DNA of 64,000 bases. Source: Blasia pusilla (Eukaryota). The number at the start of each line of letters is the position of its first letter. The first letter of the stretch is position 1. The DNA is taken from contig CM114271.1 of NCBI GenBank assembly GCA_050084515.1, forward strand, positions 15,190,001 through 15,254,000. Direction: 5' to 3'. The translations under genes were made by a program, and so were the position numbers. This document shows, piece by piece, positions 11,101-61,590 of the stretch. The notes beneath the pieces were generated by a model, which saw only the letters and a program-made list of their open reading frames with translations, had not been told where the DNA came from and did no database searches.

Positions 11101-11206
11101 ACCCCCTGGTAGCTCGCCCTCAACTCAGCGAAGAACTCAACCACGGGGTTGAACTTGGGACGAACCCGACTAGACGTTGCAACTGCTCCAATGCGAGTGA
11201 CCTCTC
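7462..11206 (-). mobile_element. Ty3/gypsy DNMT-family copy 1, internally deleted: gag, protease, [DNMT-RT-RH-INT core deleted], integrase C-terminus, PHD, 3' repeats
   Basis: Gag knuckle remnants (CWSCGGAHH, CDYFQRYGHTRARC), FLLDSGVQP protease, integrase tail AQHRGTLRYA, PHD at 8372-8490; colinear with the copy at 37854-44861. Confidence 0.88.
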
Positions 11207-16769: not shown

Positions 16770-18255
16770 GGGCATTTTCGAAAACATTAGTAACTTGGAA
16801 AGGGATGTTTGGAACTAGAGTTACTCAACATGACCCCTTATGCCATACTCCAAACCATGAGGAACCATTGGGCATGCAAGATTCTTGCTCATCTTGAATC
16901 ATCTTGAAAAATTGAGTTAGAATGCATGAATCATTGAAGCATGCATTAATTATTATCCTATAAATCTCCTACAAAAAATTGAAGTAGGTATTAATATGTA
17001 ATATTTGGATTGGTTAGATGGATATTTTCATAGAAAATGATAAAGAAAAGAAACTACATTGACTCTTTTGAATAGATTTTTTTCTACCTTGCCATTTTGC
17101 AAAAATTTGCCCAAGGGTTATGAAAAACAAATTCCTCAAACTAGTAGAGACTCTACATGAACATGAATAAAGATATGTATATAAAATTAAGGGAGGAAAC
17201 CTAATTCATTTTTAGCACAATCCATGATTGAAATGATCTTTCTAAATAAATAACAAAATCACGAGTAGTTACATAACAAGCAAGGAATAACTTTTACATG
17301 CACATTTATCAACTCCGTTATGCTTGTAATTGATCTTTACAAGATGGAATGTAATGAACTCAAACTCCATGTCCACATGCATTTTCATACGTGAAAACTT
17401 TATTCCTCCATATTTTTCAAAGAAATTCAAAGAGATCCAAGAAAATGGAAGTAATTTTGAATTATAAATTGAGGAAGAGGGGTTATTATATGAGGAAAGT
17501 ATCTTCTAAGAAAAAATATTATTTTTTCAAAGAGGAAATATGAGTTGTCACCTTACCTCTTATGGAAAGGAATAAGATGAGTCATTGTATTGAATGTACA
17601 TGTTCATACGCAACAACGTGTGTAAATTCATGAGATCGAAACTTCGGATTACTTTAATAGAAATTACCAAACCCTATGTATAAACAACATATTTAATGAT
17701 TTCATTTATAATTAAATTGAAATAAGATAGATTAATTAATAAAGGCATAAATACTATTATTAAAAAATTAATTAATAATGAGATGATAAGATGCCTTTTG
17801 TCTTTTTCTAGAGTTCAAATAATTTTTAGATATAATCATGATTAATTTATTTTTAAAAATGAATTTTTTTGTAAAATTGGAGAAAGATTAAATAAAATTT
17901 TTTACCATCCATCAATTATCAATAAGAAGCTAGTGCATTATACATGCATCTTTACATGTCTATAATAGTGAAAGATGGTTTCTTACAAGGGAATTCATTT
18001 TGTTTAAAATAAAACATGGAAATTTTAATTGAGTATGAAACACTTCAAAAGTCAACATGGTTGGGGTCAGAATCATGATAGAAATATATATTTTTAAAAT
18101 AAGGGGACAATAAAGATTAACTATGCATGTATTCCCAACATTACATCTAGACCCAAGCTAATGTACATAAAATAATTATCAACAAAACTAATTTTGGAAG
18201 GATCTTCAAGATTAATTTATTCTAATATTGGAAAGATGATTTTTCCAATGCATAC
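16770..18255 (+). repeat. AT-rich dispersed repeat, copy 1 (inverted relative to 45178-46580)
   Basis: Colinear reverse-complement match over ~1.4 kb, e.g. aaagggatgtttgga...catgcaagattcttgctc; ~100 bp extra near 17610-17705. Confidence 0.88.
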
Positions 18256-25062: not shown

Positions 25063-25478
25063 TGTAGAAAACCGCTAAAGAAGCATAATTGGTGGGAAAC
25101 TGCTCTCACACTCACACACCACCATGAAGAACAAAATTTTACAATGAGAGAAATGAGTGGAGGCTGGTCCCCTTCTCAATGAAATAGGGTATGTACAAGC
25201 AACCCTAATCCTAATCTTAACCATAGTCTCGAGTTAGACTAGCTATGATTAACTAACCATAGTTAAGATAATCGCGCTTAAGTGACTAACCAAGATTAAA
25301 CTTCCCTACTTCATGTGAGTACCAAATATAGCAGTTCAAGTGTCTGATGAGCTTGACTATAACTCAGTCTTCAATACTCCCCCTCAAGCTCATATCGATA
25401 TCTCTAACGCCTAAATAATTTCTTAACATCTCAAACTTATCTCTAGAAAATGCCTTTGTTAAGATATCAACAATTACT
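25063..25478 (-). mobile_element. Ty1/copia 3' remnant: RNase H C-terminus, PPT and 311-bp LTR (25063-25373)
   Basis: VDILTKAFSRDKFEMLRNYLG...LRGS; GAGGGGGAGTAT followed by TGAAG...CTACA. Confidence 0.75.
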
Positions 25479-25479
25479 C

Positions 25480-28400
25480 GTAAAATAATGGGGCCTGCCG
25501 TCACATCCAACGTTGTTGGTGCATTCTGCTACAAATAGACATAGTCCCCCACATGGAACCTACGAATCGATGGTCAATAACCTCCACCCTAAATGGTTGC
25601 ATACCGCAATGTATCCCTGTGTTGAGCAATGGCAAGATTCTCAAAGGCTGTTGGCATAACTCTCCGAGGGAGCTCTCCCCGTTGAGAACACACTCTCATC
25701 TACATCTCTGGGTCATCAAGGTTCACCACCTCACTAGACTCTTGACGAATTGATGTTGGCAAGTCTGGATCTCGGCCGTATAACAAAAAAAGATGAGAAG
25801 GAAGCCAAGGATGCTTGGCGACTGAACCTATACCCCATGGCTAACCATGGCAACTGAATATCCTAGTCTCCAAGATGCCCCTTTTGTAGGTTATACTTGC
25901 GCAATGCCCTCTTCACCGTCTGAACCACACGCTCAGCCAAACCATCCGCCTCTGGATGATCTCGAGACGTGGTCCGATGATCAATCTACGTCTTGTCACG
26001 CAAGACCTGAAACTCTATACCCTTGTCGGTCAGCACCTTAGTTGGTGCACCAAAATGACTAAGCACTCTATCAAGAGACACATACGCCGTTCCCTCACTT
26101 GCCTTGTCAGGTAATGCCACCAACTCAATCCACTTGGAAAGTGCTCCACCATCACCAACACATATCGATGATGTCGTACAGTCAACGGTAACGGTCCCGC
26201 AAAGTCCACACTCCAACGGTAACCCAACCCCATAATAGGCAAGGGGAGTAACTATGGTGTAGGGGCATTGAATGATTCCCTCACCTGGTCACAAACCATA
26301 CAATGTGACACCAACTGTTGCACGTGAGTATGCATGATACGCCACCAATATTGGCCAAGGAGTAAGCTATACGTACGCTTTACCCCAAAATTTCCCAACT
26401 CCTCATGGGCATGTTGCACGATGCGCTCTCTCTGAGCCAAATGTGGCACCACTCGTACTCTACAATCCTCTCACACACAAAGAATATGTGTTCCCTCCAA
26501 TCAATACCTCCTAGCACGTTGAAGAACACGGTCTCGCTCCTTAGCACTCACTATGCCTAGCACCCTACTGGTCCGTAAGAACTCCAACACCAACGCATCA
26601 TCATGAATATCACGCTGATCGGTACCACCATCTCCAACCTTAGGATCTGAAGGTTGGCCATCTACCCTGTGACTAGAGTAAGGTGTCATGTGGTCCTCCA
26701 TACTAGAGTCCATCCCTAACCAACATAAAAAGGCAGATGCATGCCAACCTGGCACCATCTCCTCATCAACCTCGCCATGCCATCTAGCCCCAATTGCATC
26801 CTCTTGGCTTGTACATGGGTTCCTACTCAACCCATCAGCATCAAGGTTGGCAACTCCAGATCTATGTACCATCTGTAAGTCATACTCCTGTAAGATAAGA
26901 GCCCACCGTGCAAGCTTCCCTGTAAGCTTGTCAGACTCCATCAACCACTTGAGCGGCTGGTGATCAGTAACAAGGGTAAACTGTGTGCCAAACAAGTAAC
27001 ACCTAAAGTGTGCCACAGCCCACACTACTGCCAAGCACTCTCCCTCATATGAACTATAGCGCGAATCCGCTGCATTATTTGAACGACTTGCATAGGCCAC
27101 CACAAAATCCATGTGCTCATCATCATGTTGTGTCAACACCGCTCCAAGTCCCAACATACTCCAATAAGTGTGCAACTCAAATAGGCGCCCTCTGATAGGT
27201 CTCCTCAAGATAAGCGCGGCCATCAACTAGGCCTTGAGCTCCATAAAAGCTCTCACGTTATCATCTCCCCAGTGCCACTCCTAATCTAATTTCAGCAATT
27301 GGTTCAAAGGCTTTGCCATAACACTAAATCCCTTCACATACCTCCGATAGTAGTTCGCCAATCCCATTAATGCCTGAACTCTACTCATATCTACCGGATG
27401 AGGAATAAGTGCAATAGCCTCCACCTTTGCGTGCTGAACTCCCAAACCACCTGGATAGATCAGATGACCCAAGTACTCAACATCCTCATGGAAGAACTTA
27501 CACTTTTTTGGATGCAAACGTAGACCATGAGCTTTCAACTGCTCAAACACAATCTGCAAATGTATCTGATGGTCCTCCACCGTGTTACTCAACACCAAGA
27601 TATCATCAATGTAACACCAAACAAAATCCAACCCTGCTAGGATCCTTTCCATCACTCTCTGAAACTCGGAAGGTGCATTCTTCAACCCAAAGGGTAAGAA
27701 TTTCCACTGGTACAAACAATCCTTGCCATGAAAGTTGACACCCCAAAGTCTTGTCTTGGCCTTGTCACTCTCTCGAATCGGTAATTGATGGTATCCTGCC
27801 CGAAGATCCAAAGTACTAAAAATCTTTGCCTATCCCACCACATCAAAGATCTCCTTAGGTGTAGGCATGGCATACCTATCGGCCTTGGTTTGCCGATTGA
27901 TAAGACGATAATCTCCACACATCCGCCTATCCATGTAGTTGCCATGCACATCCTTTTTCGCAGGGATGACCGTGGCTGATGCATACTCTCCATGCAAAAA
28001 CTCCACTAATCTAGCCTTCAAAAGGTCCAAGGTCCTACTCTGAATCAGGTCCCTCTCCATATCACTATATCGGTAGGGACGACGGAAGATTGGCGTATCA
28101 TTAGCCAAATCAATCCGTATACCGGGTCCAACCAAAGCACCCAACTCCTTCATGCTAAAGGCAAAACAACTCCTATAAGCACGTAGGGAAGCGTGTCAGC
28201 GCCGTTTCTCACTCACCCCGTAAGCTTGGGCCCAAGTAATGGCTCCCAAGTCTCCTCCACTGGCACACTAGAGGGAGAGGACGATGCCATTGGCTGCTAT
28301 GCAATCCCCTCACAAGATTGTACACCCTTAGCTACACCATCATCTGAGCTCTACTCACTACCAAGGCTAACTCCCAACTCAACATGCTCAACTCAAAGAA

Positions 28401-36047: not shown

Positions 36048-37624
36048 ATAACTAGCCGGTGGCTGTGCTATGCACAAATGAAAGGCATCCAAACTCCAAA
36101 TGGTAGGACGTGTTTCAAAATTGATAGGGAGAAAACGACCCAAAAAGGCTATTGGCCCAAAAAGACTTTGGCATCAGGAAGCAGGAAGCGTGGCACCCCT
36201 ATAAGGGCACTCTCCAATAGTAATATAGATTTAGTAAAAAATTAAATTTCTCCACGACTAAAATTGCTATGATGGGGATTTTTTATAATGAAATATATGG
36301 ACAATCATGTTCAATCCTCCCACCCCAAAAAATCAAATAATTTGAAAAGTTTAGAAAAAATTTTACACATTTTCTCAAAATATTCCAAGCGAAGGTTTAT
36401 ATTGGAGTCTCTTTTAAGATTAATTGATATCAATGTCATTCTCCTCAAGAGGGGGACACAGGAAAATTCAATGAAAAATTGAGAAATTTTACTTATATGA
36501 TTACTTCCACCTTATCACATTAATTTTTTTAATATTCTTTAAAATTTAAAAATAGAATAATAATGAATACAGGGATAACTAGCCGGTGGCTGTGCTATGC
36601 ACAAATGAAAGGCATCCAAACTCCAAATGGTAGGACGTGTTTCAAAATTGATAGGGAGAAAACGACCAAAAGGCTATTGGCCCAAAAAGACTTTGGCATC
36701 GAAGCGAGAAGCGTGGCACCCCTATAAGGGCACTCTCCAATAGTAATATAGATTTAGTAAAAAATTAAATTTCTCCACGACTAAAATTGCTATGATGGGG
36801 ATTTTTTATAATGAAATATATGGACAATCATGTTCAATCCTCCCACCCCAAAAAATCAAATAATTTGAAAAGTTTAGAAAAAATTTTACACATTTTCTCA
36901 AAATATTCCAAGCGAAGGTTTATATTGGAGTCTCTTTTAAGATTAATTGATATCAATGTCATTCTCCTCAAGAGGGGGACACAGGAAAATTCAATGAAAA
37001 ATTGAGAAATTTTACTTATATGATTACTTCCACCTTATCACATTAATTTTTTTAATATTCTTTAAAATTTAAAAATAGAATAATAATGAATACAGGGATA
37101 ACTAGCCGGTGGCTGTGCTATGCACAAATGAAAGGCATCCAAACTCCAAATGGTAGGACGTGTTTCAAAATTGATAGGGAGAAAACGACCCAAAAAGGCT
37201 ATTGGCCCAAAAAGACTTTGGCATCAGGAAGCAGAAGCGTGGCACCCTATAAGGGCACTCTCAATAGTAATATAGATTTAGTAAAAAATTAAATTTCTCC
37301 ACGACTAAAATTGCTATGATGGGGATTTTTTATAATGAAATATATGGACAATCATGTTCAATCCTCCCACCCCAAAAAATCAAATAATTTGAAAAGTTTA
37401 GAAAAAATTTTACACATTTTCTCAAAATATTCCAAGCGAAGGTTTATATTGGAGTCTCTTTTAAGATTAATTGATATCAATGTCATTCTCCTCAAGAGGG
37501 GGACACAGGAAAATTCAATGAAAAATTGAGAAATTTTACTTATATGATTACTTCCACCTTATCACATTAATTTTTTTAATATTCTTTAAAATTTAAAAAT
37601 AGAATAATAATGAATACAGGGATA
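36048..37624. repeat. Three near-identical tandem copies of a ~525-bp unit
   Basis: Units start at ~36048, 36575 and 37098 and differ mainly by 1-nt indels; the same 64-aa ORF recurs in each. Confidence 0.97.
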
Positions 37625-37853: not shown

Positions 37854-38606
37854 TGTCGTGCCCATACACATCGCTACACAACATACATCGCTGTCATCGA
37901 ACACACACACATACGATCCCATGCTAACTCATGGCATCCATAAACAAGGGCGAGAAGTATCAAAATATCTCCAATAAAGTAAGATTCAATCTCTCTCTAC
38001 ACCATCTCACACCATAGCTCTCAAAGGTGTGCACTCTCTCTCATGTCAAACCAAACCCACTCTCCTAATGAGAGGCTTGGGTTACACTCACAACGCAAGG
38101 GACCATAGCTCCGCCGCCTTATGCCAAGAGGTTCAACAAAGAGAGAATGAGCTCTCAAGCTCTCTCTCTTGGAGGTATACCCCCTTCCCTCTCCCAAGCC
38201 CTCTCAACGGTAAACTATGCTCGCAGGTAATCTCCTTGGCTCTTGACGTGTTGTAGCGGGTCAAGGGTCACTTCCCAAAGTGGAAAGTCAACTATCCCAA
38301 ATATGGAAACTTACTCGAAATAGTAAGTTTTTCTATATGGCTCCAAATGAGCCGAAACGAAGGGGAAACTTGCTCTCTCAGGTTTTCCGGGGCCTAAACA
38401 GGTCATCCTCGACCTCCTGGGCCTGTCCTCCACTACTCGTGCAGACGATCCGCTAGATCCCACTGATCTATCCTAACAATCGTGACAACTGTCGTGCGCA
38501 TACATATCGCTACACAACATACATCGCTGTCATCGAACACACACACGATCCCATGCTAACTCATGGCATCCATACACAGAGGCGAGAATTACCAAAATAT
38601 CTCCAA
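37854..38606 (-). repeat. 3' terminal repeat block: B2 37854-37974, A2 37975-38487, B1 38490-38606; PPT-like tract 38607-38617
   Basis: Same B-A-B layout as 7462-8167; junction cgtgaca-ac-tgtcgtg. Confidence 0.88.
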
Positions 38607-38799
38607 TCGCCCCCCTAGCTGCTGGTTATGTTCCTCTAACTCTAGATAGCTATCTATCCCTACCTACCACGACATACATCTTTAGGACGCTAAGAGCAGA
38701 AAAGCCGGGTGCTCATGTGGCCCCATCGTTAGTCGCCTTCATGTCATCCATGTCACAGAAAAATTCAGAATCGAAAACCTACCTAGTATCTCCTTTATG

Positions 38800-38935
38800 T
38801 ACATTTGGGACACATCCATCATCCCCAAGGAACCCTAGTGAGAGGTGGCGTCAGACATGCCATATGCCAAGCTCTCGAACATCCATCACAGACTAGCATC
38901 GTGGCCGCATCACGAGCAGAACCACACAACATATA
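38800..38935 (-). pseudogene. PHD finger at the integrase C-terminus
   Basis: (Y)MLCGSARDAATMLVCDGCSRAWHMACLTPPLTRVPWG*WMCPKC; C4HC3 pattern with the first Cys replaced by Tyr. Confidence 0.9.
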
Positions 38936-40100
38936 ACGCAAGCTTGCAAGACCTACTCCTAAGCTCGGATCTACTGTACCATCAATGTTAGGAAGGTGAC
39001 ATGGCGCACAATTACGCACATGGTCCTTCCATACCATACCATCGCGTCCCTCGAGCAAGAGAACACTGGATGGCAAAACGTCATGCACTCTCAGGATAGT
39101 GCACCCTGCAGTCACATCCAACGTCGTCGGTGCCGTCTGCTGCAAGTAGACATAATCTCCCTTATGAAACCTCCGGATAGTTGGTTGATAACCACCACCC
39201 TGAATAGTTGCAAACCTCAACATATCCCTATGCTGCGCAATCACAAAGTTCTTGAACGCCATGGGCATCACTCTCCGAAATAACTGTGCCCTCTGAGAAC
39301 ATGCTTGCATCCATACATCTAGGTCATCAAGGTCCAGCACCTCACCAACATCTCGACGAATGGCCGCAGGTAAATCTGGCTCTTGACCATAAAGTAGCAA
39401 GTACGGTGAAAAAGATGCTAAGGATGCCTGTCTGCTGAATCTGTGTCCCATCGCCAACCAGGGAAACTGGAGGTCCCAATCTCCTAGGTGACCTCTCTAC
39501 AAGCCATACTTGCGTAAAACCCTCTTCACCGTCTGCACAACTCTCTCCGCTAATCCATCCGCCTCGGGATGATCTTGCGAAGTCGTGCGGTGGTCGATCA
39601 GCGCCTGATCACACAAGGCCTGGAACTTACCACGAAAATTGGTAATGTGGTCTGTCAACACCTCAGCCGGTGCGCCATAATGACTCAACACTCTGTCAAG
39701 GAAGGCATAAGCTACTCCCTCACTCGCTTTGTCAGGCAATGCAACCAACTCGATCCACTTCGAGAAGTGCTCGACCATCACCAACACATAACGACTGTGA
39801 CGCTCCGTCAAAGGCAAAGGTCCTGCAAAATCCAAAATCCATATATACCCTAAGCCCATGATCAGTAATGGATGCAATTGTGGAGTCGGAGCATTGAACG
39901 ATGCTCAAACCCGATCACACACCACGAACCTGGCAATAAAGTGCTGAGCGTCAGTCTACATGCCTCGCCACCAATACTGGAGCAAGATATACATCCGCTT
40001 CACCCCAAAGTGACCCAACTCCTCGTGGGCATGCTGCACTAGTCGTGCTCTCTACAAAGGATGAGGCACTACGCATACTCTACCATCCTCCCAAACCCTC
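38936..40100 (-). pseudogene. Retroviral-type DDE integrase
   Basis: HEELGH zinc-binding region, LDFAGPLP, VLTD...FRGKF, HPEADGLAERVVQTVKR, SPYLLLYG. Confidence 0.93.
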
Positions 40101-40390
40101 AAAACATGTGTCCCCTCCCAACGGAACCGTCTGGCCCAGTGTAGGATCCGATCCCGCTCTCTAGCACCCACGGTGCTCGCAACGCTGCCAGTACAAAGGT
40201 ACTACAAGACTACTCCATCATCATGAATATCTCGGCTACATATTGTCTCCTCACTGGCCTCGAGATCCAAGGACTCTCCACTAGACCTCGCCATCGAAGT
40301 CTCCACACTGTGGCTCTCCATAGAGCCTAAATAGGCTGACACGTGCCATCCTGGCACTGACTCCTTATCACTCTCTCCATGCCTTCGAGC

Positions 40391-41841
40391 TCAAGTCGCA
40401 TCTCGCTGACTCGGGCATGGGTTACAACTCAACCCATCTGCATCGTGGTTGAGCATCCCAAGTCTATGTACCATCTGAAAATCATACTCTTGCAACAACA
40501 GAGCCCATCTTGCAAGCTTCCGTGTAAGCTTGTTGGACTTCACCAACCACTTTAGTGGTTGATGATCATTGATGATGGTAAAGGGGCTGCCGAATAAGTA
40601 ACACCTGAAATGCGCGAGAGCCCACACTGCAACCAAGCACTCAACCTCATACGAGATGTACTTTGCCTCTGCAGCGTTGTTCGAGCGGCTAGCATAAGCC
40701 ACCACGAACTCTCTACCCTCATCATCATGTTGGGTGAGTACCGCTCCAAGCCCCAAAACGCAACAATCTGTGTGCAACTGGAAAGGACGCCCCTTGATTG
40801 GTCTCCTCAAGATAGGTGCGGACGTCTCTCTATCCTTGAGCAACAGAAATGCTCGCTCCTACTCACCCCCTAGTGCCACTCGTGATCCACCTTGGTCAGC
40901 AAGGTTAGTGGCAATTGAACTAAATCCCTTGACGTACCCCCGATAGAAGTTCGCCAATCTCATGAATGCGCGAACACGGCTCACATGTGTAGGACGTGGA
41001 ATGCGTGAGACAGCCTCTACCTTCGTCTGCTGAATACCAAGGACCCCTAGGTATATTGTATGACCCAAGTACTCAATCTGGTCGTACAAGAACTTGCACT
41101 TGCCTGGATGTAGCTTCAGCCCATATAATTGCAATCGTCGAAACACCTCCTCGAGATGTCACTCATGCTCCTCATCTGTGACGCTAAAGACTACGATGTC
41201 ATAAATATAACACCTAGACCGGCCAAGATCCTATCCATGACCCTCTGAAACTCAGCCGGGGTGTTCTTTAACCCAAATGGTAAGAACCGCCACAGGTACA
41301 AACAATCCTTCTCATGAGGATCGATGCCCCAAAATTGTGTCTTCTGCCTATCCTCCAATCAGATAGGCAGCTGATGGTATCCGGCTCGCAAATCCAATGA
41401 ACACAAGACGTTTGGATGACCAATCACATCCAAGATCTCCTGAGGGGTGGGCATGGCATACTTATTGGACTTTGTCTGCCAATTGATAGGTCGGTAATCC
41501 CCACACATCCGCCAATCCGTCCAGTTGCCATGCACATCCTTCTTGGAAGACATGACAGTGGCAGAAGCATACTCCCCATGCAACATCTCCACTAGTCCTG
41601 CTCCGACCAAGTCCTGGCTCCTACTCTGAATTAGAGCCCTCTCCATATCATTGTACCTGTAGGGTCGTCGGAAGATCGACGTATCATTCGACAACTCAAT
41701 GCGAATCCCCGGTCCCTTTTGCATACCAAAATCCTCCATGCTAAATGCAAAGCAGCTCCTATAACTCCTGAGGAATTGATGTATCCGGCGCCGCTCTCCT
41801 CTTGTCAACTTAGGACCCATATTTGGCTCCCAAGTCTCCAT
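40391..41841 (-). pseudogene. Reverse transcriptase and RNase H
   Basis: WRMCGDYR, LDLRAGYHQ, PFGLKN, degenerate YIYD, KCKF...EYLGH, LHTD, AYASRSNN, DHQPL, HDADGLS. Confidence 0.93.
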
Positions 41842-42169
41842 CGTGATTACGGTAGGACTCTCCGGTGCGGGTATCAGTGGTTGCTATGGTTCAACCCCGT
41901 CTCGAACAACAACACTCAACCGCTCTCTTGCAACCAACTGCAAACTCTGATCTCCTCCACGTGCAGTGCCCAGAACCACACTCGATGCTGTGGCTATCAT
42001 CTCTTGGCGTACCTGCAAAACATCCCAAGAAGTCCAAGGGTGTCTCTCCCAATCTCCCCTGGTGTGTAGATCTCCTCGGGTCTCGCCCCCAGCCATTGCC
42101 TCCACCGTCTCGGTAGGCATAGGGCTCACCAACGCGATGGTTGTGATCTGTCACAATCTCATACAGCGT

Positions 42170-43140
42170 TGCTCAGCCACTCCCAAGCTAAGGATCCATG
42201 TCAAGCAGTTCAGGTCCATCGCCTGACCCAAGACATGGCATCGTGATGCCTCTAACACTGACGATACTGCTGTCACTCATGTGGGAAATCCCATCGCTCG
42301 CTCGCTCTCTCTTGTCGGCGTTGGGCTCCACCAACCGCTGAACCTGGTCATCCAAACCAAGCCAGGACCGGCCTCCTTGTATGCATAGGAAGCGGAAAAA
42401 CTCACAAACGTGGGCAAGGCAGCCCGCGGCCTGCCTACCCTGTTGACCATAGTCAACGGTGGTCAATCATCGTGCCTCACTGCTTGTGATCGACGATGTG
42501 GATCCATAATGGAATCAACTAACAAATGGGAGGGGCGCTCCACTCTCGCATACGCCCTCCGTAACACCGCTTGGGGCACCAAGTTGGTCCATCATAGACG
42601 CGGGCGATGGGCTCTAGAACCTACACTCGCCGCATCCAAGAACACTGCTGGGCCAATCTAGGCACGCACTTGATGAGCACTTGTGACCACCCGTTACCTG
42701 GAGTCTCCTAAGATCGGCACATTCTCCAGAATGTAGGCTGGAGAACGAGACTGGTGCTCATGAAATTGCCGTAAGACCCTCAACATCTCCCAAAAAAACC
42801 TAGACCGAGTGTCAGCCAACCCACAGCCTCGTCCAACACTTGATTGGCCCTGACATGGCCAACCGGAAATGACCAAATCAATGGTCCCTACTTGCTCTAA
42901 GTCCTGCGCCCCCAACAACAAAATATCCCTCAGTAGGGAACTCTGGTGTCCCTATACCGCGGACGCAGAAAATAAGTCGGGAAATCGTAAGCGTAACTGC
43001 GCTACATGTCCTAGTGAGACGCGCCTCACAACATCATCACTCTCCACATACAGGTACTGCTGCACTCGCACTCCTGCATGCAAAACAATAGCTAACCCGG
43101 TGCTAATCCCTCCAAAGAGATCTAACACTCGAATATCCTC
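42170..43140 (-). pseudogene. DNMT3-like DNA (cytosine-5) methyltransferase domain within the polyprotein
   Basis: Motif I VLDLFGGISTG; II YVE; IV DLVISGWPCQ; VI ILENV; VIII LDAASVGSRAHRPRL*WTNL; IX RERA.MGFP; X VLGQAMDLNCLTWIL; all in canonical order. Confidence 0.92.
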
Positions 43141-43181
43141 CTCCGGGATATACCACACAATGGGTGTGGTATCCAAGGGTG

Positions 43182-44231
43182 TCATGTAGCACTCCTTGCT
43201 ACCTCGGGTTCCTCAGACCTGTCACCCTCCGATGCAAACGCGTCGCTCCACGCGGTCTTCACATGCTGATCTGCCAATCGTCGAAGCTCCTCAGTCGAGC
43301 CCCACAATGGCACCTCTCCTCCACGGAATGATGCGGCTACCATAACACTCCTCTTCATAGAAATTTCAGGTATGGGAGTATCCTCTGCATGGACATGTCC
43401 CTCAATCAAATCACTAGGCCAAGTGATGGCAATGCTAAATGCTGCTAAGGTCGCCATCTCTCTTGGCCGTCGCTTGATCACTGCACCTGTGAATCGAACG
43501 GGTAATGAGTTAAGGCGCCCATCACCTGACTGCCATTCTGGTTTGTAGGACACTGACTCCTCCCAATAATCCAGGGAAAATCCCATCGGGTATAATACTG
43601 CTCCACCAACCAAGACGTCGTAAGACTCTGCATCAGTCACTATCGCCTTGGCTCGCACCACGGACTCATCTGTAGGATGTCTCGAGCGAATCCTCACCAC
43701 GACCTCTTGTCGGGTGATATACTGTGTGGTACTCGCTCCACCCAAGGATGTATGTATCCGGAATGGACAACGATCCACATTAGCTCTCGTCAAGCCCAAT
43801 CCTCTGAATGAAATTTTCTCCAACATCAGGGGTTGCGCTCCTGAATCCAACAAGACACGATGCGGACTAAAAGCTCTACCTCCGGGACTCACAAATTGGA
43901 AGATCTCTCCTCGGTTATCCAACAACACAACACCAAGAGAAGCCATGGCACGCTCTATCGTGGGTCTAGCGGGCAACTCCGCCATCCTAGGAGCCGCAAC
44001 CTGCCATGAATCTGACGTGGATGGCCCGAGCATCCACTCCAAGGGCAGGTCCATCACCTCCTTTGCCATCACCTCTGAACGTGATGTAAGAACTCCAACT
44101 CCGCGCTCACATAGTGAAGGGGCGAGCCGAAAAGCCTCGGCGGGCGTACCCTCCCACGTCATAACATCGAAAGCAGAAAATAAAGGAGTGCGATACACAA
44201 CGGTGGGCACCCCCAACAACGTGTTCAACAC
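43182..44231 (-). CDS. Retrotransposon aspartic protease region plus linker (349-aa open stretch of a decayed polyprotein)
   Basis: VLLDSGAQPLML catalytic motif and YDVLVG second motif. Confidence 0.85.
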   Translation of the reverse strand: MLNTLLGVPTVVYRTPLFSAFDVMTWEGTPAEAFRLAPSLCERGVGVLTSRSEVMAKEVMDLPLEWMLGPSTSDSWQVAAPRMAELPARPTIERAMASLGVVLLDNRGEIFQFVSPGGRAFSPHRVLLDSGAQPLMLEKISFRGLGLTRANVDRCPFRIHTSLGGASTTQYITRQEVVVRIRSRHPTDESVVRAKAIVTDAESYDVLVGGAVLYPMGFSLDYWEESVSYKPEWQSGDGRLNSLPVRFTGAVIKRRPREMATLAAFSIAITWPSDLIEGHVHAEDTPIPEISMKRSVMVAASFRGGEVPLWGSTEELRRLADQHVKTAWSDAFASEGDRSEEPEVARSAT

Positions 44232-44239
44232 ATGCCCCT

Positions 44240-44825
44240 CCTAAGCATCAACAATAAGAGTCATCGCACTCGCTTCTCCCATCGCCCTCCGTGCCTGCAC
44301 ACCAACAGCATCACCAACTCTCAAGGAACTTTGATGAGGACCCATCGATTGGGTCCTCATCGCTTCAGACAACGTGAAAGACTGAGGAAGCCTAGTATGT
44401 TTTCTGGCTTCCCCTCGCTGTGGATCCAACTTTGCGGCTACTCCACGCGTCACAACTACGGTGGCCTCCATCTAGGCAACCCCGCACATCCAACCAGGAT
44501 CCTCCATATCTTTGGCTGCTCCATATGATGTCGATGCCACAACGGAAATTTGCTCATGTAGATACTGTAACTGAGCAGCCATCCTAGCCTCACGTCCGAC
44601 GTCTCCCTCGGCGCGTCTAGGTGGTGGTACTCTACCTCCTCCACGGGCAGCTCCACCACCCTGTCCGGGCAACTCCAACTTCTCGTCCCCCAACGGGACC
44701 ACATGATGCATGATCCCTAGGCCCACCCGGACCGGCTACTCGCTTTGGTGCCCTCTCTAGCCCTCGGTCCGGATGTAACTCAAGATGTTAACTAAAACAC
44801 CTCGCGCGTGTATGACCATACCTCC
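44240..44825 (-). pseudogene. gag: gag C-terminal remnant
   Basis: YGHTRARCFS knuckle end and G/R-rich tract, colinear with 10089-10560. Confidence 0.8.
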
Positions 44826-45177
44826 CACCGATCCCACCGATCTATCCTAATAGTCGTGACAATGGTGTTGGAGATGGAGCAACAACACGCTCAAGTAGAA
44901 GCCACACAGTTGGTGTTGGAGGTGAAATTTTGGAAACAAGTGGAGGAGCTTGCTAAGTTGTGACGCACCTTTGGAGTTGATAATGATCATCTACCTTCAA
45001 TATTATGTAGAGGAACAATGGTTCACCAATATGTATGTTTGCTATCACTTAGGAGAGGTTGTGCGTCATTTTGTGATGTCTACATAGAAAGAAGGAGATT
45101 TTTTTTAGGATTCAATTAATACCTAGAAGGAGTTGAGGTTAATGATTAGGGCCAAACTTGTGCCTAATAAGTAGGAA

Positions 45178-46580
45178 ATATGCATTGGGAAAAATCATCT
45201 TTCTTAAATTAGAATCAATGAATCTTGTAGATGCTTCAAGAAGTTAGTTTTGTTTGTAATTATTTTGTATACATTAGCTTGGGTCTAGTTGTAATGTTGG
45301 GAATGCATGCATAGTTAATTTTTTTGGTCTGCTTTTTAAAAAAAAACCATATATTTCTATCATGATTCTGACCCCAACCATGTTGAGTTTTGAAGCATTT
45401 CATCCTCAATTAAAATTTTCCATGTTTTATTTTAAATAAAATGAATTCCCTTGTGAGAAACCATCTTTCACTATTATAGCCATGTAAGGATGCATGTATA
45501 ATGCACTAGCATCTCATTGATAATTTGATACATGGTGAATTTTTTAATTTGATCTTTCTCCAAATTAAAAAAACTTTGCATTTAAAAAAAAGAAATCAAT
45601 GAGGATTATATCTAAAAGTTATTCAAACTTTAGAAAAGACAAGAGGCATCTTATCATTTTATTATGAATTTCATTTTTTGATAATAGTATTTATGCCTTA
45701 ATTAAGTAATATTTCTTCTTTCAATTTAATTTGCGCATGAACATGTACATTTAATATAATGACTCATGTTATTCCTTTCCATAAGAGGTACTGTGACAAC
45801 TCATATTTCCTCCTTGAAAAAATACTCTTTTTTCTTAGAAGAGACTTTCCTCATATACTGATCCCCGTTCCTCAAATTTATAATTTAAAATTACTTCCAT
45901 TTTCTCATGCCCTTTTGTTGGATCTCTTTGAATTTCTTTGAAAAAGAGGAGTAATTTGTTTTTACGTATGAAATGCAGGTGTACGTGGAGATTGTGTTTA
46001 TTACATTCAATCTTGTAAAAATCAACTACAAGCATAAAGGAGTTAATAGATGTGCATGTAAAAGTTATTTCCTTGCTTTTTACGTAGCTACTCATGATTT
46101 TGTTATCTATTTAGAAAGATAATGTCAATCATGGATTGTCTTAAAAATGAATAAGGTTTCCTCCCTTAATTTTATATACACATGTTTATGCATGTTCAAG
46201 CTGAGTCTCTATTAGTTTTGTGGAAATTTCTTATCAGATCCCTTCGGCAATTTTTGTTGTTGTTGAAAAATGGTTTGGTATTAAAATGAGTCAACGTTGT
46301 TTCCTTTCTTGATAATTTTCTATGAAAATTACCATCTAACCAATCCAAATCTCATTTATTATTACCTACTTCAATTGTAGGAGATTACATAGGGTAAGAA
46401 TTAATGTATACTTCAATGATTCATGCATGTCGACTCAATTCTTCAAGATGATTCAAGACGAGCAAGAATCTTGCATGCTCAATGATTCCTCATGGTTTGG
46501 ATTATGGCGTAAGGGGTCATGTAGAGTAACTTTAGCTCCAAACATCCCTTTCGGGATTACTAATGTTTTCGATCATGCCC
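45178..46580 (-). repeat. AT-rich dispersed repeat, copy 2 (inverted copy of 16770-18255)
   Basis: Reverse-complement colinearity with copy 1. Confidence 0.88.
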
Positions 46581-55223: not shown

Positions 55224-58200
55224 GCTAGGGGAGGTTACTTCTTCAGCTACTAATGATATTCTAGGAGGGGTGAGTCGGACTTGGGCAGATCGATGCATCG
55301 TCTTAGGTTCAACCATGTGGTTGAGTTCTTTGCAGAGTTGCAAAGGAACTACCAGGGGGTTCGGACTGAGAAGTTGCAGAGCATCCATGTCTTCCATAGC
55401 CGCACATGTAAGAGTTTGCGTGAGGCATTCATTCGCTTGCGTTGATTGATTAGCATCACTCAAGGTGTGATAGAGGCCCACGCTATCCAAGCATGGTACG
55501 CGATGTTGGAACGAGACATGCGGAAACGGGCGAGGGATGCGACACTTCTTATACGCACCTTACCTACGTTGAGAGATGTTTTTGAGATGGCGGAGTGTAT
55601 TGAGGGAAAAATGCTTGAGGAGAGTCATAAGTCACGCGCGAGAGCAGTCACGATTTTCCTGTACCACCATTGCAACAACGTGGATTTCGGAAGAGGACTG
55701 TGGTACCACGAGGTCAGAGAGAATACTAGGAGTCAGTGCCATAGAGACCAACGCCATAATATGGGGCCGGGAGGAATTTTTTGTTGGGCATGTGGTGAAG
55801 CCCATCACCAACGGGATTGCATTAGTCACAATAGTGGATGCGTACCTCAGCTTGGAGGAGGAGATGGGTTCGTACCAGGATTTTACCACTTTGATCATTG
55901 TCAACGGTTATGGTCATACATGCGCCATGTGTTTTAGCCTTTAACCTGAATTATGCCCGGACCGAAGGCCACAGAGGGCATCAAAGCGAGTTGTCGGTCT
56001 GGGTCGGCCTAGAGGCCATACGCTAGGTGGTCCCGTTGGGATACGAGGAGTTGGATTTGGCGGAAGGGGTGATGTATATGCTCGTGGAGGAGGTAGAGGT
56101 CCACCACCTAGACATGTCGAGAGAGACAAAGGGCGTGAGGCTAGGATGACTGCTCAGATAGAGCAAGTCCAACAACACATTTCCTCTATGGCATTGAGGT
56201 TATCCGATGCCGGATTAGTGGGATTGACGTTGTATGGAGCAGATTGAGGCAGTCGTTGTTGTTACACATGGAGCAGCTGCAAACTTGGATATGCAGAGGG
56301 GAGGCCAAGAAACACACCACACTTCCTCAGCCTTTCATGTTGTCTGCAGCAATGAGGACTCCATCGATGGATCTTCATCAAACTTCTCGGGGAGTTAATG
56401 TTATTGGTGTGCACGCACGGAGGACGATGGGAGAAGCTGGTGCAATGACTCATATTGCGGATGCTTCGGTGGAGTTTGTGTCGGGTACGTTGTTGGGGAT
56501 GGCCATTGTGATGTACCGCGCCCCATGGTGTTTTGCTTTCGATTGTTACAATGTTAGGAAGTAAGCCCGTTGAGGTTTTTTGGCTGGCCGCTACGCCATG
56601 TGAGCGTGGAGTTGGTGTTCCAACATCAAGGTCAGAGATGATTGCAAAGGAGGTGGTGGACTTGCCCTTGGAGACTATGCTTGGCCCGACCATATTGGAT
56701 TCATGGCAGGTTGCGACTGTTAGGATGGCGGAGATGCCTGCTAGACCCGGGATAGAGCGTGCCATGGTTTCTCCTAGTGTTGTGTTGCTAGATAATTGGG
56801 AAGAGGTCTTCCATTTGGTGAGTCTAGAAGGTAGAGTGTTTTTTCCGCAACATGTCTTATTGGATTCAAGAGCGCAACCCCTGATGTTGGGGAAGGCGAC
56901 ATTTAGAGGATTAGGCCTAACTAGGGCACATATGGAGTGTTGCCCATTGAGGATACAATCATCCTTGGGTGGAACAAGTACGACGTAGTTTATCACCCGA
57001 TATGAGGTTGTGGTGAGGAGTTGCCTTGGACATCCATCAAATGAGTTCATAGTGCGAGCCAAGGCGATAGTGACCGATGTCGAGTCATATGATGTATTGG
57101 TTGGAGGAGCAATACTATACCTGATGGGGTTTTCTTGGATAAGTGAGAGGAGTCAACATCCTACAGACTAGGATGGCGGTCAAGCGATGGGCGAATGAAT
57201 TCATTATATGTTCAATTCACAAGTGGAGTAATCGAGTGACCACCACGAGAGATGGTGACATGAGCAGCATTCAGCATCTCCATCACTTGGCCTAGTGATT
57301 TGATTGAGGGGCATGTCCATGCAAGGGACACACCCACGCTTGACACTTCTACAGAGAGGAGTGTTATGGTAGCCACATTATTCTGTGGAGGGGAGGTGCC
57401 GTTGTGGGGCTTGAGTGAGGAGCTTCGACGCTTGGCCGATGAGCACGTGCAGACGGATTGGAGCAAGAAGTTTGCACTAAAGCATGACGGGTTAGAGGAA
57501 CCCGAGGTAGCTAGGAGTGCTACTTTGACACCCTTGGACAACACATCCATTGTATGGCGGATCTTTGAGGAGGGTATTCAGCTATTGGATCTCTTTGGAG
57601 GGATCAACATAGGATTGGCTACTGTTTTGTAGGCAGGAGTACATGTGCAACAATATCTATTTGTGGAGCTCGATGAGGTTGCGTTTAGGGTTTAGGGTTT
57701 CACTTTGACATGTGGCGTAGTTACGCCTTCGTTTTCTCGAATTGGTGTATGCCTCCGTTGTACATGTGTACCAGAGTTCCCTACCGAGGGATATTTCGTT
57801 GATGGGGATGTGGGACTTAGAGTGGATGAGGACCATTGATTTGGTCATTGTTGGTTGGCCATGTTAGGGCCAGTCGAGTGCTGGATGAGGTAAAGGGCTA
57901 CCTGACACTTGATCTAGGTTGTTTTGGGATATGATCAGGATCTTGCGACATTTGCAAGAGCATCAGTCCCGTTCTCCAACTTTCATCTTGGAGAATGTAC
58001 CAATTTTGGGTGACTTGAGGGCACGGATGGTGACAAGTGCACATCAGATGCGTGCTTAAATTAGTCCAGCAATGTTTTTGGAGGCGGCGAGTGTAGGTTC
58101 ACGAGCACATCTCCCGCGTCTATGGCAGACCAACTTGATGCCACACGAGGTGTTACGAAGGGCGTATATGAGAGTGGAGCACCCCTCCCATTTGTTGATG

Positions 58201-59997
58201 GATTCTATTTTGGATCCGAGTCGTTGATTAGAGGTAGTGAGGCATGATGATTGACCGTTGTTGAGAGTGGTCAATAGGATTGGCAGTTCACGCGCAACCT
58301 TTCCCACCTATGTGAGTTTTCCCGCTTCCTTTTGATACAAGGAGGCTGAACCTGGCTTGGTTTGGGATGACCAAGCATAGCGGTTGGTGGAGCCCAACAC
58401 CGATGAGCAAGGGCGGACGATCAAATTTCCCACAAGAGTGAGGGCAGTACCGTCACTATCAAAGGCATCACAACGTCATGTCTTAGGTCAGGTGATGGAC
58501 TTGAATTTCCTGACATGGATCATCAACTAAGGAGTAGCTGAGCAACGTCGAATGAGGTTGCAACAGATCACAACTATTGTATTGGTGAGACCCATGCCTA
58601 CCAAGACGGTTGAGAAAGTAAATAGGGGCAAGACCCAAGGAGATGAACATACCAGGGGTGATTAGGAGAGACACCCTTGGACTTCTTGGGATGTTTTGCA
58701 ATAGGCCGAGAGATGGCAGACACAACATCGAGTGTGGTTCAGGGTACTATAAGTTGAGGAGATCTCTATAAGAGTTTGGAGTTGGATGCAAGAGAGCGAT
58801 CGAGTTTGGTTGTATGAGATGGGGTTGCGCAATAGCAACCACCAATTCCTGCACCTGACAATCCTATAATAATCACGATGAAGACTTGGGTGCGAGATAT
58901 AGATCCTAAGTTGACACGAGGAGAGTAGCGCTACATACATCAGTTCCTTAGGAGTTATAGGAGATGTTTTGTATTTTGCATGCATGATTTAGGTACGCTA
59001 AAGGATCCAAGGATCCGCATTGAGTTGTCTAGCAACACATCAATCTTCTGACGATCCTACATGTAAAATGATATGGAGTGGGCTCTGATTCAGAGTCGGA
59101 GCCAAGACTTGGTTGGAGTAGGACTAGTGGTGATGTCGCATAAAGAGTATGCATCTGCTACCGTCATGCTCACCAAGAAGGATGTGAATGGCAACTAGAG
59201 GGATAGGCGGATGTGTGGAAATTACCAACCGATCAATCCGAGACAAAGTTTGATAGGTATGCCATGCCCACTCGTGAGGAGATATTTAATGATATTGGGC
59301 ATGCAAAGGTCTTTAGTTCCTTAGATCTTTGAGCTGGATACCATCAGCTGCCTATCAGATTGGAGGATGGGTAGCAGACGAAATTTTGGGGCATCGATCC
59401 TCACGGGAAGGATTTTTTTTGTACTAGTGGCGATTCTTACCATTTGGGTTAAAGAACGCTCCAACAGAGTTTCAGAGGGTTATGGGTAGGATCTTGAAAG
59501 GGTTGGATTTTTCTAGGTGTTATATTGATGACATCGTAGGGTTATATAACACCACAGATGAGGAGCATGAGCGACATCTAGAGAGGGTGTTTCGATGATT
59601 GCAGTTACTTGGGCTGAAGTTGTATCTAGGCAAGTGCAAGATCTTCTACGATCAGATTGAGTACCTCGATCATGCAATATACCTAAGTGACCATGCAATA
59701 TATGTGCAACAGACAAAGGTAGAGGCTATTCACACATTTCCACGCTCTACAGATGTGAGTCCAGTTCGTGCATTCATAAGATTGGCGAACCTCTATCGAC
59801 GGTACGTTAAGGGTTTTGGTTCGATTGCGAAGCCACTAACATTGGTGATCAAGGTGGATCACGAGTGGCAGTAGGGGGATGAGCGAGAGAGAGCATTTCA
59901 TCTTCTTAAGGACAGGTTGACGTTGGCATCCATATTGAGGAGACCGATCAGGGGGCGTCCTTTCCAATTGCATACTGATTGGAGTATGTTGGGGTTT
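55213..59997 (+). mobile_element. DNMT-carrying gypsy copy on the plus strand (gag-PR-DNMT-RT-start of RNase H), both ends truncated, more decayed
   Basis: CWACGEAHHQRDC, VLLDSRAQP, LLDLFGG, GWPC, LENVP, RRMCG, PFGLKNAP, YIDD, LHTDWS. Confidence 0.92.
57576..58545 (+). pseudogene. DNMT3-like C5 methyltransferase domain, second copy
   Basis: IQLLDLFGGINIG, DLVIVGWPC, FILENVP, ASVGSRAHLPRLWQTNL, VLGQVMDLNFLTWI. Confidence 0.9.
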
Positions 59998-60597
59998 GAC
60001 ACGTGTATGAGCATGACACGCCGCTAGAGCCCATTAGCATGCACATGCTACAAAGCTAAGGAGACCAGTTGCCTACAATAAAGAATCACTATAGCTAATA
60101 ATCTCAGGAACTAAGGACGATCCATTTCTTGACTGTAGATGATGAGTAAGGAACGAGTCAAACCTCCCCCATAGCCTCATATATCTCTATGATAAGGGAA
60201 ACTAATCCATGTCCATCATGAAATCTACTTTATAGATGGGTTTTCTTGATAGCCTCCACCACTCCTTGAAACATTCTCCCTTTAACCACCACCGGGCTCC
60301 CACGCAAGAAAGTCAAATGTCGATTGTTGGTTTGGGGTTTTTACCATGTTTTCACATATGAGTACACATCATGTTTTCCCACGGCTTTTGAGCCTATCCG
60401 GAATGTTATGAGCCTCTCAAACAGAACTTTCAATGGCAGCACTGTTTTCAAATATCCTGTCATCCAGCTTGGGAACTCGGCAAGAATTTTCTCAGCAACG
60501 GAGGGAATTCTGAATCCCATACGTCTTTCGAATAGCTAGTTATTCCACCGCGTTGGAGCTTAGCCAGAATATTCTAATCTGGGGAGAGAATTTCGAA

Positions 60598-60778
60598 TGG
60601 CAGCATTCTTTTCTAACAGCATTCATGCCAGGGCTTTGGATCTTAGCGTGAATCCTCTCAGCAGTAGAGAGAATTTTAATGGCAGCATTCTTTTCCAACA
60701 GCATGTATGCCAGCGCTTTGGATCTTAGCGTGAATCTTCTCAGCAGTAGAGAGAATTTTAATGGTAGCATCCTTTTCC
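60598..60778. repeat. 82-bp tandem repeat (~2.2 copies)
   Basis: ggcagcattctttt...gctttggatcttagcgtgaatc...gagagaattttaat x2. Confidence 0.88.
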
Positions 60779-61089: not shown

Positions 61090-61590
61090 TTTCTTGACGC
61101 AAGAATTGTTTCTATTTTCTTGAAGCGATGATCGCATTAGAAGGGCGTCAATTGGTTCCACGCTTCTTGAAGCAACGATCGCATCAGAAAGCCGTGAATT
61201 GGTTGCATGATTCTTGAAGCGATAATCGTATCGGAAAGTCGTCTATTGGTTCCATTCATTTTATTCCATGTTTCTTGGAGCAGTAATCGCATTTGAAAGA
61301 CGTCAATTGGTTCCATGCTTCTTGAAACAATAATCGCATCGGAAAGCCATCTTTTGGTTCCATGTAATTTATTCTATGTTTCTTGACGCAACTATCGCAT
61401 CGGAAAGGCGAAAATTGGTTGAGTGTTTCTTGAAGCGTTGATCGCATTAGAAAGTCGTCGGTTAGTTTCATGTTTCTTGACGCAACAATCGTATTGGAAA
61501 GGCTTCAGTTGTTCAAACTTCCTGAAAAATTCGCTCGGGAAAGGCGTCAATTGGTTCCACATTTCTCGGAGCAACAATCGCTTTGGAAGG
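61090..61590. repeat. Degenerate ~47-bp minisatellite (~10 copies)
   Basis: Consensus approximately ttcttgaagcaataatcgcatcggaaaggcgtcaattggttccatgt. Confidence 0.88.

Follow-up and report, generated by a model that had tools for sequence, protein, structure and literature searches.

The window analyzed here is a 64-kb stretch of DNA from the Blasia pusilla assembly (GenBank GCA_050084515.1, contig CM114271.1, positions 15,190,001 to 15,254,000), and it holds on its minus strand, from 44862 to 37854, an element (copy A) that we identify with high confidence as a dead, 5′-truncated Ty3/gypsy-type long terminal repeat (LTR) retrotransposon of a liverwort genome, in which a DNA methyltransferase (DNMT) domain is a selected part of the family. 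This confidence extends to the identity of the element and to the DNMT as a selected family component, while the mechanism proposed further below lies outside it. Stop-to-stop frames together with Pfam searches gave, in the sense direction, the order gag remnant, protease, DNMT3-like C5 cytosine methyltransferase, linker, reverse transcriptase (RT), RNase H, integrase, and PHD finger. Retrotransposon-borne DNMTs are described in passages of de Mendoza et al. 2018 (PMC5890265) for Symbiodinium (LINE and DIRS types) and for the Gypsy-DNMT3 of Klebsormidium nitens (KnitGypsy-Dnmt3), the acquisitions in the two hosts being treated there as independent; the original prediction for this stretch, made from the sequence alone, had named such elements from dinoflagellates and Klebsormidium, in agreement with these passages. 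Judging by its domain, backbone, repeat plan, and selection on the DNMT, we file the family of copy A as a land-plant member of this known Gypsy-DNMT3 kind.

The methyltransferase domain and its retrotransposon backbone

A full-length but stop-interrupted C5 methyltransferase following the DNMT3 pattern had been proposed to lie between the protease and the RT, and the searches agreed on both counts. The domain (42154–43212, minus strand, motifs I–X, six in-frame stops inside) shows the DNMT motifs in order in one minus-strand frame running from 43212 to 42154, namely DLFGGISTG (43122–43096), GWPCQG (42864–42847), ILENV (42732–42718), GSRAHRPRL followed by WTNL (42621–42580), RAMGFPT (42300–42280), and VLGQAMD (42234–42214). 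With the stops written as X, the copy A domain matched PF00145 with 37.6 bits against a cut-off of 22 (E 2.2e−9), and the stop-free piece 42694–42951 matched it with 39.9 bits. The original prediction had named a missing PF00145 match as an outcome that would speak against it. Among the 31 distinct sequences of solved structures matched at E ≤ 0.01, 29 were DNMT3A/B/C (5.5e−14 to 8e−9), the remaining two being a DRM-type plant enzyme (0.0019) and M.HaeIII (0.0095). A profile of 13 family members matched DNMT3A/B/C structures at 3.3e−22 to 4.7e−17, DRM-type enzymes at 6.3e−11 to 9.8e−8, M.HhaI at 3.7e−10, and DNMT2 at 6.4e−6, and no DNMT1-named chain was found at ≤ 0.01 with this profile among the solved structures. 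As judged by match scores, the DNMT domain is nearer to DNMT3 than to DNMT1, DRM, DNMT2, or bacterial enzymes. Neither a PWWP nor an ADD reader domain was recorded by Pfam in the proteins and open reading frames (ORFs) of the 18 relatives scanned, in which the DNMT part consists of the catalytic domain only; with the reader domains missing, it does not belong to the host-type DNMT3 enzymes.

The gag remnant and aspartic protease occupy 43185–44735 (minus), with LLDSGAQ at 43853–43833. The protease ORF runs from 44240 to 43185 (minus), residues 378–843 of the Marchantia protein P0279 align to 44615–43239, and the protease region of the relative P0297, which Pfam recognized, aligns to 43973–43476. 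Pfam assigned no family to the protease ORF of copy A, and the protease call is made from the DSG motif and the alignment to relatives. Downstream of the DNMT, a linker (41887–42153, minus) opens with a stop (42153–42151) where copy B, described below, has Q, and is followed at 41878–41886 (minus) by an in-frame TAG with CAA CCA after it, a candidate read-through site at the boundary of the protease-DNMT part and the RT. The RT (40862–41883, minus) contains a stop at 41361–41359, a frameshift near 41194–41158, and YIYD at the YxDD box, and because of the frameshift RVT_1 remained below its cut-off (24.8 bits vs. 29.6). Next come an RNase H of the Ty3/gypsy type (40394–40858, minus; PF17917 4.6e−34, PF17919 1.1e−26), an integrase with a zinc-finger remnant (HEELGH at 40027–40010) and a DDE core (39500–40051, minus; rve 1.7e−11), and the integrase C-terminal region (38822–39496, minus), at the end of which stands a PHD finger (CDGCSRAWHMAC at 38890–38855; PF00628 2.1e−7). 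No chromodomain was found in copy A by Pfam, the PHD finger taking its place at the integrase C-terminus, and this C-terminal/PHD region is retained in copy C at 8846–8382 with 70% identity. The protease-RT-RNase H-integrase order, the gypsy-type RNase H, and the DDE integrase bear out the assignment to Ty3/gypsy made in the original prediction.

The repeats of the family are arranged as A, coding region, B, A, B, with TG..CA ends. In copy A, whose termini were set where homology to copies B and C stops, the 3′ part of this plan is complete on the minus strand: repeat B1 (38490–38607) is 91% identical to B2, the LTR-like repeat A2 (37976–38488) begins TGTCACGA, matches the A1 remnant, and is 84% identical to the A1 of copy C, and repeat B2 (37854–37975) forms the 3′ terminus, ending in GCACGACA at the same point at which copy C ends. 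Of the 5′ repeat A1, 33 nt are left (44830–44862, minus), equal to the start of A2 and likewise beginning TGTCACGA, with 30 of the 33 bases matching 38488–38456; a full-length 5′ repeat was absent from copy A, and none was matched at the apparent 5′ ends of copies B and C. Copy C has the same B-A-B tail, and its A1 (11207–11720) is without a B after it. The whole plan can be seen in a better-preserved relative with a DDE integrase (locus L035, 1676–10805 in its own coordinates), in which A1 (1676–2017) and A2 (10350–10691) are 92% identical and B1 (10238–10350) and B2 (10693–10805) 94%. This locus starts with TGTCATGA, ends with GCACGACA (TG..CA), has a 4-bp AAGG duplication on both flanks, and carries the purine run AGGGGGGCGAG before B1, not before A2. 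The family is therefore not a canonical LTR element, the arrangement being A-coding-B-A-B and not two equal terminal repeats (LTR-coding-LTR). The L035 element combines a DDE integrase, TG..CA ends, a target duplication, and the A-coding-B-A-B plan, and we know of no standard LTR replication scheme that gives this plan with a DDE integrase and a target duplication.

Relatives, selection and the conserved stop codon

An exhaustive search of a library of 1.84 billion proteins returned 2722 representatives at E ≤ 0.001; 186 of them reached E ≤ 1e−30, a level that chance cannot account for, and many of these 186 are polyproteins of 1000–3400 residues. The longer proteins found at E ≤ 1e−10 in a word-indexed search (n = 28) comprised 14 from Marchantia polymorpha (47–64% identical), one each from Calypogeia fissa (64%), Sphagnum fallax (43%), and Closterium (37%), and 11 without a species name, while cluster look-ups and a profile search added more Closterium strains as well as Scenedesmus, Haematococcus, Cymbomonas, and Tetraselmis. 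A relative was encoded in 267 metagenome stretches, out of which 80 loci were kept for analysis; on viral contigs, four pattern matches were obtained, none of them a relative, and a protein atlas yielded generic PF00145 clusters only. Neither vascular plants nor Klebsormidium occurred among the named matches, an absence that is weak evidence given how candidates were selected. No host DNMT3 was named by these searches either. The original prediction had considered such domains unusual for LTR elements of embryophytes, which does not hold for bryophytes, where they are widespread (Marchantia, Calypogeia, Sphagnum); no vascular plant was among the named matches.

Two architectures were recognized among these proteins. 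The first (CCHC, protease, DNMT, RT, RNase H, integrase, and sometimes PHD) was found in the window copies, Marchantia P0282, Closterium P0132, P0297, and locus L021, and further Closterium proteins show CCHC-protease-DNMT. The second runs RT, RNase H, DNMT, integrase, PHD, in one case with Tudor, as shown by Pfam in P0128, P0130, and P0139; the set listed under it comprises these three together with P0137, P0249, P0310, and P0327, and the proteins of Scenedesmus, Haematococcus, and Cymbomonas fall into its DNMT clade. Either the DNMT moved within the element or it was passed between element lineages. Both Chromo and PHD were recorded in P0309, a distant relative. A descent of the family from streptophyte algae, as suggested in the original prediction, would be consistent with the Closterium relatives, in which the gag-protease-DNMT order is shared.

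The DNMT tree (44 rows, family members only, quick search, SH-aLRT support only, midpoint root) paired copies A and B with a support of 95 and placed them in a 13-row clade (SH-aLRT 100) with Calypogeia, Marchantia, Sphagnum, and three metagenome rows. Sister to it were nine metagenome rows, the clade of the second architecture was separate, and Closterium, Tetraselmis, and two metagenome rows sat on long branches with uncertain positions. Ten Marchantia DNMT domains were 83.8–98.0% identical to each other (median 90%, 45 pairs); five motifs were unchanged in half of them (P0279, P0280, P0282, P0283, and P0285), and each of the other five had one motif substituted or gapped. The high mutual identity together with the retained motifs points to a recent amplification in Marchantia.

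The DNMT order and its conservation could be followed within the window as well, in copy B (55308–60084, plus strand), a DNMT-bearing and heavily decayed copy truncated at both ends, with the DNMT at about 57497–58700, the TAG at 58833, and the same protease-DNMT-RT-RNase H order as copy A. The two copies are 78% identical over 4121 bases, and their DNMT proteins 64.6% over 288 residues. Comparing them gave a dN/dS of 0.32 in the DNMT and 0.44 in the protease region; two pieces of the RT had 0.36 and 0.42, and the linker reached 0.71. These values are upper bounds for living lineages because both copies have decayed since. Stop-free DNMT domains were present in the relatives L001, L003, L004, and L021, and dN/dS among the DNMTs of stop-free relatives was 0.15, 0.17, and 0.20, with dS near saturation. 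By these ratios, the DNMT is under purifying selection, as strongly as the RT.

Locus L021 (504–7804 in its own coordinates) is an apparently intact relative with three ORFs, i.e., a Gag-like ORF of 701 residues, a protease-DNMT ORF of 728 residues that lies one base back and overlaps the first by ~130 nt, and, after a TAG, an ORF of 1047 residues with RVT_1, RNase H, H2C2, rve, and PHD (RVT_1, H2C2, and rve above cut-off). Read from its sequence, expression of this element may need two recoding events. In copy A, DNMT, linker, and RT share one frame, interrupted at 41886–41884 by the TAG that precedes CAA CCA, and the identical nine bases are found in copy B at 58833–58841. A DNMT match reaching the domain C-terminus and followed by a downstream RT match was present in 56 of the 80 metagenome loci, 24 of which had a DNMT at least 48% identical to Marchantia P0279 and are referred to as the closer loci. 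In 17 of these 24, T(A/G)(A/G)-CAA stands ~76 codons past the DNMT and in the DNMT frame; in another five, the nine bases lie equally far from the DNMT but have been put out of frame by indels (22/24 in total with T(A/G)(A/G)-CAA-CCN), and the last two carry the mutated forms TAG TAG CCA and TAG TAA CCC. The TAG site is the sole stop between a stop-free DNMT and the RT in L001, L004, and L021. The other 32 loci (DNMT 37–42% identical) all lacked the signal (0/32), and six of them had no stop in the scanned DNMT-RT interval. The Marchantia and Calypogeia protein models, as well as one from a metagenome, end ~16 aligned codons before the position of the TAG of the window. Read-through of a stop codon between gag and pol is known from gammaretroviruses, and the context UAG-CAR-YYA (UAG-CAA-YYA) favours read-through in plants and plant viruses. 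We consider it reasonably probable, judging from the sequence, that the RT and integrase of the family would be made by read-through of this UAG.

Decay of copy A, its surroundings and its transcripts

Copy A can encode no product. The internal stops of its DNMT start at 42954, 42696, 42660, 42594, 42465, and 42279, the one opening the linker being a seventh just downstream; its protease and DNMT ORFs are in different frames and overlap at 43212–43185, where relatives have a single ORF; and it has lost most of A1 as well as the gag N-terminus (about residues 1–377 of Marchantia P0279). In comparison with close relatives in a DNA run, copy A has T for C at 20 places and A for G at 11, the reverse changes numbering 4 and 4, and this excess of C-to-T and G-to-A would be the pattern expected from deamination of methylated cytosines. 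The observed/expected CpG ratio was 0.64–0.73 in copies A, B, and C (0.73 in copy A) and 0.56 in fragment D; CpG depletion was considered as a special signal of the copies and rejected, these values lying inside the 0.37 to 0.73 spread of the remaining window. The sense strand of the DNMT-bearing copies has a GC skew of about 0.2 (G over C; 38001–44000 and 56001–60000), and CpA exceeds TpG on it (1.38 vs. 1.14 in copy A, 1.48 vs. 1.15 in copy B), which could reflect codon usage or a G-to-A bias of the sense strand.

Family pieces in the window number four (copies A, B, and C and fragment D) and make up about one third of its length. Copy C (7459–13965, minus) consists of a body (7459–11192) from which DNMT, RT, and integrase were deleted internally and of an inverted 5′ part (11207–13965, plus strand) with A1 at 11207–11720 and the gag N-terminus at 13594–13965, the inversion being inferred to be a local rearrangement. 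Its breakpoint lies 15 bp from the end of the body, at about residue 120–131 of Marchantia P0279, and the match of copy B to P0279 also stops close to this residue, near 135. Fragment D (25475–28252, minus) is an RT-RNase H-integrase piece of a related member, 65% identical to the RT-RNase H region of Marchantia P0282; a DNMT-less sister family was considered for it and dropped, the fragment being cut exactly at the RT start and hence uninformative on a former DNMT. Three tandem units of ~523 bp, 92–100% alike, form an array at 36048–37624, ending ~230 bp past the 3′ end of copy A, and further tandem arrays lie beyond the truncated end of copy B (60584–60778 and 61117–61503, with periods of 82 and 47/108 bases). 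An AT-rich inverted repeat pair (45179–46500 and 16850–18254, 83–86% alike), the former member ~320 bp past the 5′ end of copy A, probably belongs to a different transposon family.

The original prediction had taken the stretch for DNA of a land-plant-type genome, and the flanking sequence agreed. An AMP-binding ORF of 448 residues (2202–3548, minus) had liverwort 4-coumarate-CoA-ligase (4CL)-like proteins as its top three matches (Marchantia polymorpha 63%, Riccia sorocarpa 60%, and Riccia fluitans 61% identical), other plants coming next at ~40%, which suggests, from these similarities, a liverwort-specific paralogue; the 4CL-like host gene as a whole spans 982–3548 (minus; AMP-binding 1.5e−48). 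Since the best matches of this gene are from liverworts and the nearest DNMT relatives come from liverwort assemblies, the window is regarded as liverwort DNA, and a non-plant contamination was not borne out. The best-matching DNA runs share 0.27–0.31 of the window's words, no RNA run being listed among these word matches, and in run X1, which has the same organism label as these, 91,206 contig pieces matched copy A with at least 95% likeness, so that the subfamily must be very abundant in the organism of this run.

Three RNA runs with the same organism label gave 246–306 reads each on copy A, mostly 95–99% alike, as counted in 6–12% samples of the runs. About half of the reads continue into sequence unlike the window, and because of this and their 1–5% difference they are taken to stem from other copies. 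Read depth peaks at the A2/B2 end (up to 30) and amounts to 0–7 in the DNMT. The first mates map almost without exception to the plus strand, which would mean minus-strand (sense) RNA if the libraries follow the common stranded design.

Several points weigh against the main reading of copy A and its family. Copy A is itself dead: its DNMT contains six stops and is out of frame with the protease, its RT is frameshifted and reads YIYD at the YxDD box, and its 5′ end is gone. It shows no convincing target duplication, its TG..CA ends being flanked by three matching bases (CAT). Moreover, two DNMT stops are common to copies A and B, which could mean descent from a dead copy. They occur at codons where relatives have W and R, positions at which TGG-to-TAG/TGA and CGA-to-TGA changes recur, and as the commonest transitions make exactly these stops and dN/dS is low, we read them as parallel hits, a segmental duplication of an already dead copy seeming the less likely source. 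The Marchantia proteins are gene predictions, several of which skip the conserved stop by means of a predicted intron, and the RNA reads are mostly 1–5% off copy A. The placement in the DNMT3 clade draws on similarity and a shared layout instead of a tree, the tree containing family members only, and the kinship with KnitGypsy-Dnmt3 draws likewise on similarity and shared layout, this element having been compared by its published description and not by its sequence. The read-through is a prediction from sequence only, and CAA CCC fits the UAG-CAR-YYA rule only partly. Finally, no enzyme activity has been shown for any Gypsy-DNMT3, and passages of the 2018 study report the Klebsormidium domain as negative in yeast, a result called inconclusive there (PMC5890265).

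Proposed role, alternatives and known systems

In live members of the family, the DNMT is very probably a working component maintained by selection. The coding plan, read from copies A and B and from better-preserved relatives, begins with Gag, followed by protease-DNMT (in one ORF, or after a −1 frame change as in L021), the conserved in-frame UAG-CAA-CCN, and, in the same frame, RT-RNase H-integrase-PHD. In live copies, the DNMT would thus be produced with Gag and protease, and hence in larger amounts than RT and integrase, which would need UAG read-through, and it would be released by the protease. The PHD finger might tie integration to the state of histone tails, like the chromodomain in chromoviruses, i.e., Ty3/gypsy elements with a chromodomain on the integrase; by this analogy, a guiding of integration by the PHD finger is put forward tentatively. 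The released DNMT would methylate cytosines de novo, with the element's own new cDNA or insertion as the most likely target. Judging by its motifs and nearest relatives, the domain probably methylates DNA, and the more specific proposal that the element's own cDNA or new insertion is the main substrate, put forward in the original prediction and also by the 2018 authors in passages of their paper (PMC5890265), may hold but commands less confidence.

The alternative that retains most plausibility, though we consider it unlikely, is that the DNMT is selected but acts on RNA, on the DNA of the host or of rival elements in trans, or as a DNA/chromatin-binding module of the Gag-protease product. 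Its position speaks for this, as it belongs to the reading unit of Gag and protease and is separated from the RT by the conserved stop, which lies downstream of it. According to passages of the 2018 study, SymbioDIRS domains performed de novo CG methylation in yeast, the Klebsormidium and LINE domains produced no methylation there, and RNA methylation is raised for the LINE-borne DNMT (PMC5890265). On the other hand, the catalytic PC, ENV, and RxR motifs are retained family-wide, the nearest solved relatives are de novo DNA methyltransferases, with the tRNA enzyme DNMT2 far worse (6.4e−6 vs. 3.3e−22), and the authors called the yeast negative inconclusive since human DNMT3B failed too (PMC5890265).

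It is very improbable that the DNMT is a functionless passenger, i.e., a host DNMT3 exon captured once by one lineage of copies. Both DNMT-bearing copies of the window are dead and two of their stops coincide, and retrotransposons do capture host fragments; against this, the protease-DNMT-RT order recurs in Marchantia, Closterium, and the metagenome loci matching both DNMT and RT, all catalytic motifs are retained, dN/dS is as low as that of the RT (0.15–0.32), and many of the 186 library representatives at E ≤ 1e−30 are polyproteins. A capture confined to a single lineage without selection, which the original prediction had named as the outcome that would speak against it, is thus contradicted by two diverged window copies (dN/dS 0.32), by relatives in many species, and by the ratios of 0.15–0.20 among stop-free DNMTs. 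Least probable of all is a window that is not liverwort DNA, be it an algal or other contaminant or a misassembly of a host DNMT3 gene with a gypsy element: relatives are abundant in metagenomes and green algae, and small shares of the window's words occurred in runs of air metagenomes and of other organisms (not mapped and not used), but the same window holds a gene with liverwort best matches next to four family copies or fragments, the nearest DNMTs come from liverwort assemblies with contigs of 8–27 Mb, the DNA run with the same organism label puts its 91,206 contig pieces on copy A, and protease, DNMT, and RT are collinear in two copies.

With the DNMT as a selected component of the family, retrotransposons would bear an enzyme that is normally used for silencing them, a paradox previously documented, as far as the passages of the literature cited here go, in dinoflagellates and one charophyte alga only. 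New in this analysis is that elements of the Gypsy-DNMT3 kind are abundant in a liverwort and that related ones occur in Closterium as well as in a peat moss and a leafy liverwort. In Marchantia polymorpha, near-identical copies with intact catalytic motifs are annotated as 'hypothetical proteins'. No paper on Gypsy-DNMT3 in bryophytes, or naming the Marchantia models, was found in the literature, whose supplements, not covered, may list copies; passages of two Marchantia papers and of the Physcomitrium DNMT3 paper (PMC6453930) make no mention of such elements, and 'streptophytes' is the only host group named in passages of a 2025 paper (PMC12344493) and of a 2026 preprint, both of which cite the 2018 work for it. 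It remains a rather doubtful, if attractive, possibility that bryophytes including M. polymorpha carry young, possibly active elements in which a DNMT3-type de novo methyltransferase is expressed along with Gag and protease, ahead of a stop that is read through, that these were inherited from streptophyte algae and lost in vascular plants, and that the enzyme writes part of the methylation of element or host. If this were true, a land plant amenable to experiment would for the first time allow tests of transposon-encoded DNA methylation. The occurrence in Marchantia already brings the question to land plants and to an organism with routine knock-outs, methylomes, and expression assays. Two testable features are added: the integrase carries a PHD finger, and a conserved UAG-CAA-CCN boundary assigns the DNMT to the Gag-protease part of the element. 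As a caution, transposon copies can inflate counts of 'DNMT3 genes' in bryophyte genomes.

Among known systems, chromoviruses resemble the family in having a chromatin-reader domain at the integrase C-terminus and differ in that this domain is a PHD finger here and not a chromodomain. The gammaretroviral gag-pol stop and the read-through context of plant viruses are alike in that CAA follows an in-frame UAG and the ORF beyond it continues without a change of frame; they are unlike in that protease and DNMT stand upstream of the stop here, where read-through is only predicted. The green-algal gypsy elements (metagenome proteins P0128, P0130, and P0139) share the DNMT family (35–40% identical), the gypsy backbone, and a C-terminal PHD, whereas their order is RT-RNase H-DNMT-integrase-PHD, sometimes with Tudor, and their DNMTs form a separate clade. 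Host DNMT3 enzymes (human DNMT3A and, from passages of PMC6453930, Physcomitrium DNMT3b) have a similar catalytic domain (3.3e−22 by profile) and likewise a linear motif order; in contrast to them, the domain is embedded here between a retroviral protease and an RT, without introns, in many copies, and without PWWP or ADD. SymbioDIRS-Dnmt3, as described in passages of PMC5890265, likewise combines a retrotransposon-borne DNMT3-type domain with A-coding-B-A-B repeats; the paper gives this plan for elements of the DIRS type and, in the legend of a figure, for KnitGypsy-Dnmt3 too. SymbioDIRS-Dnmt3 is, however, a tyrosine-recombinase element of the DIRS class, while the family of copy A has a DDE integrase, TG..CA ends, and, in L035, a 4-bp duplication. 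KnitGypsy-Dnmt3 itself, again according to passages of PMC5890265, shares an unrearranged DNMT3-type domain within a gypsy polyprotein, the DIRS-like A-coding-B-A-B repeats, a streptophyte host, and a DNMT kept under purifying selection (Ka/Ks below 0.2 in Klebsormidium, 0.15–0.32 in the present family), and the family described here differs from it in its land-plant host, a liverwort, and in its relatives in Marchantia, Calypogeia, and Sphagnum.

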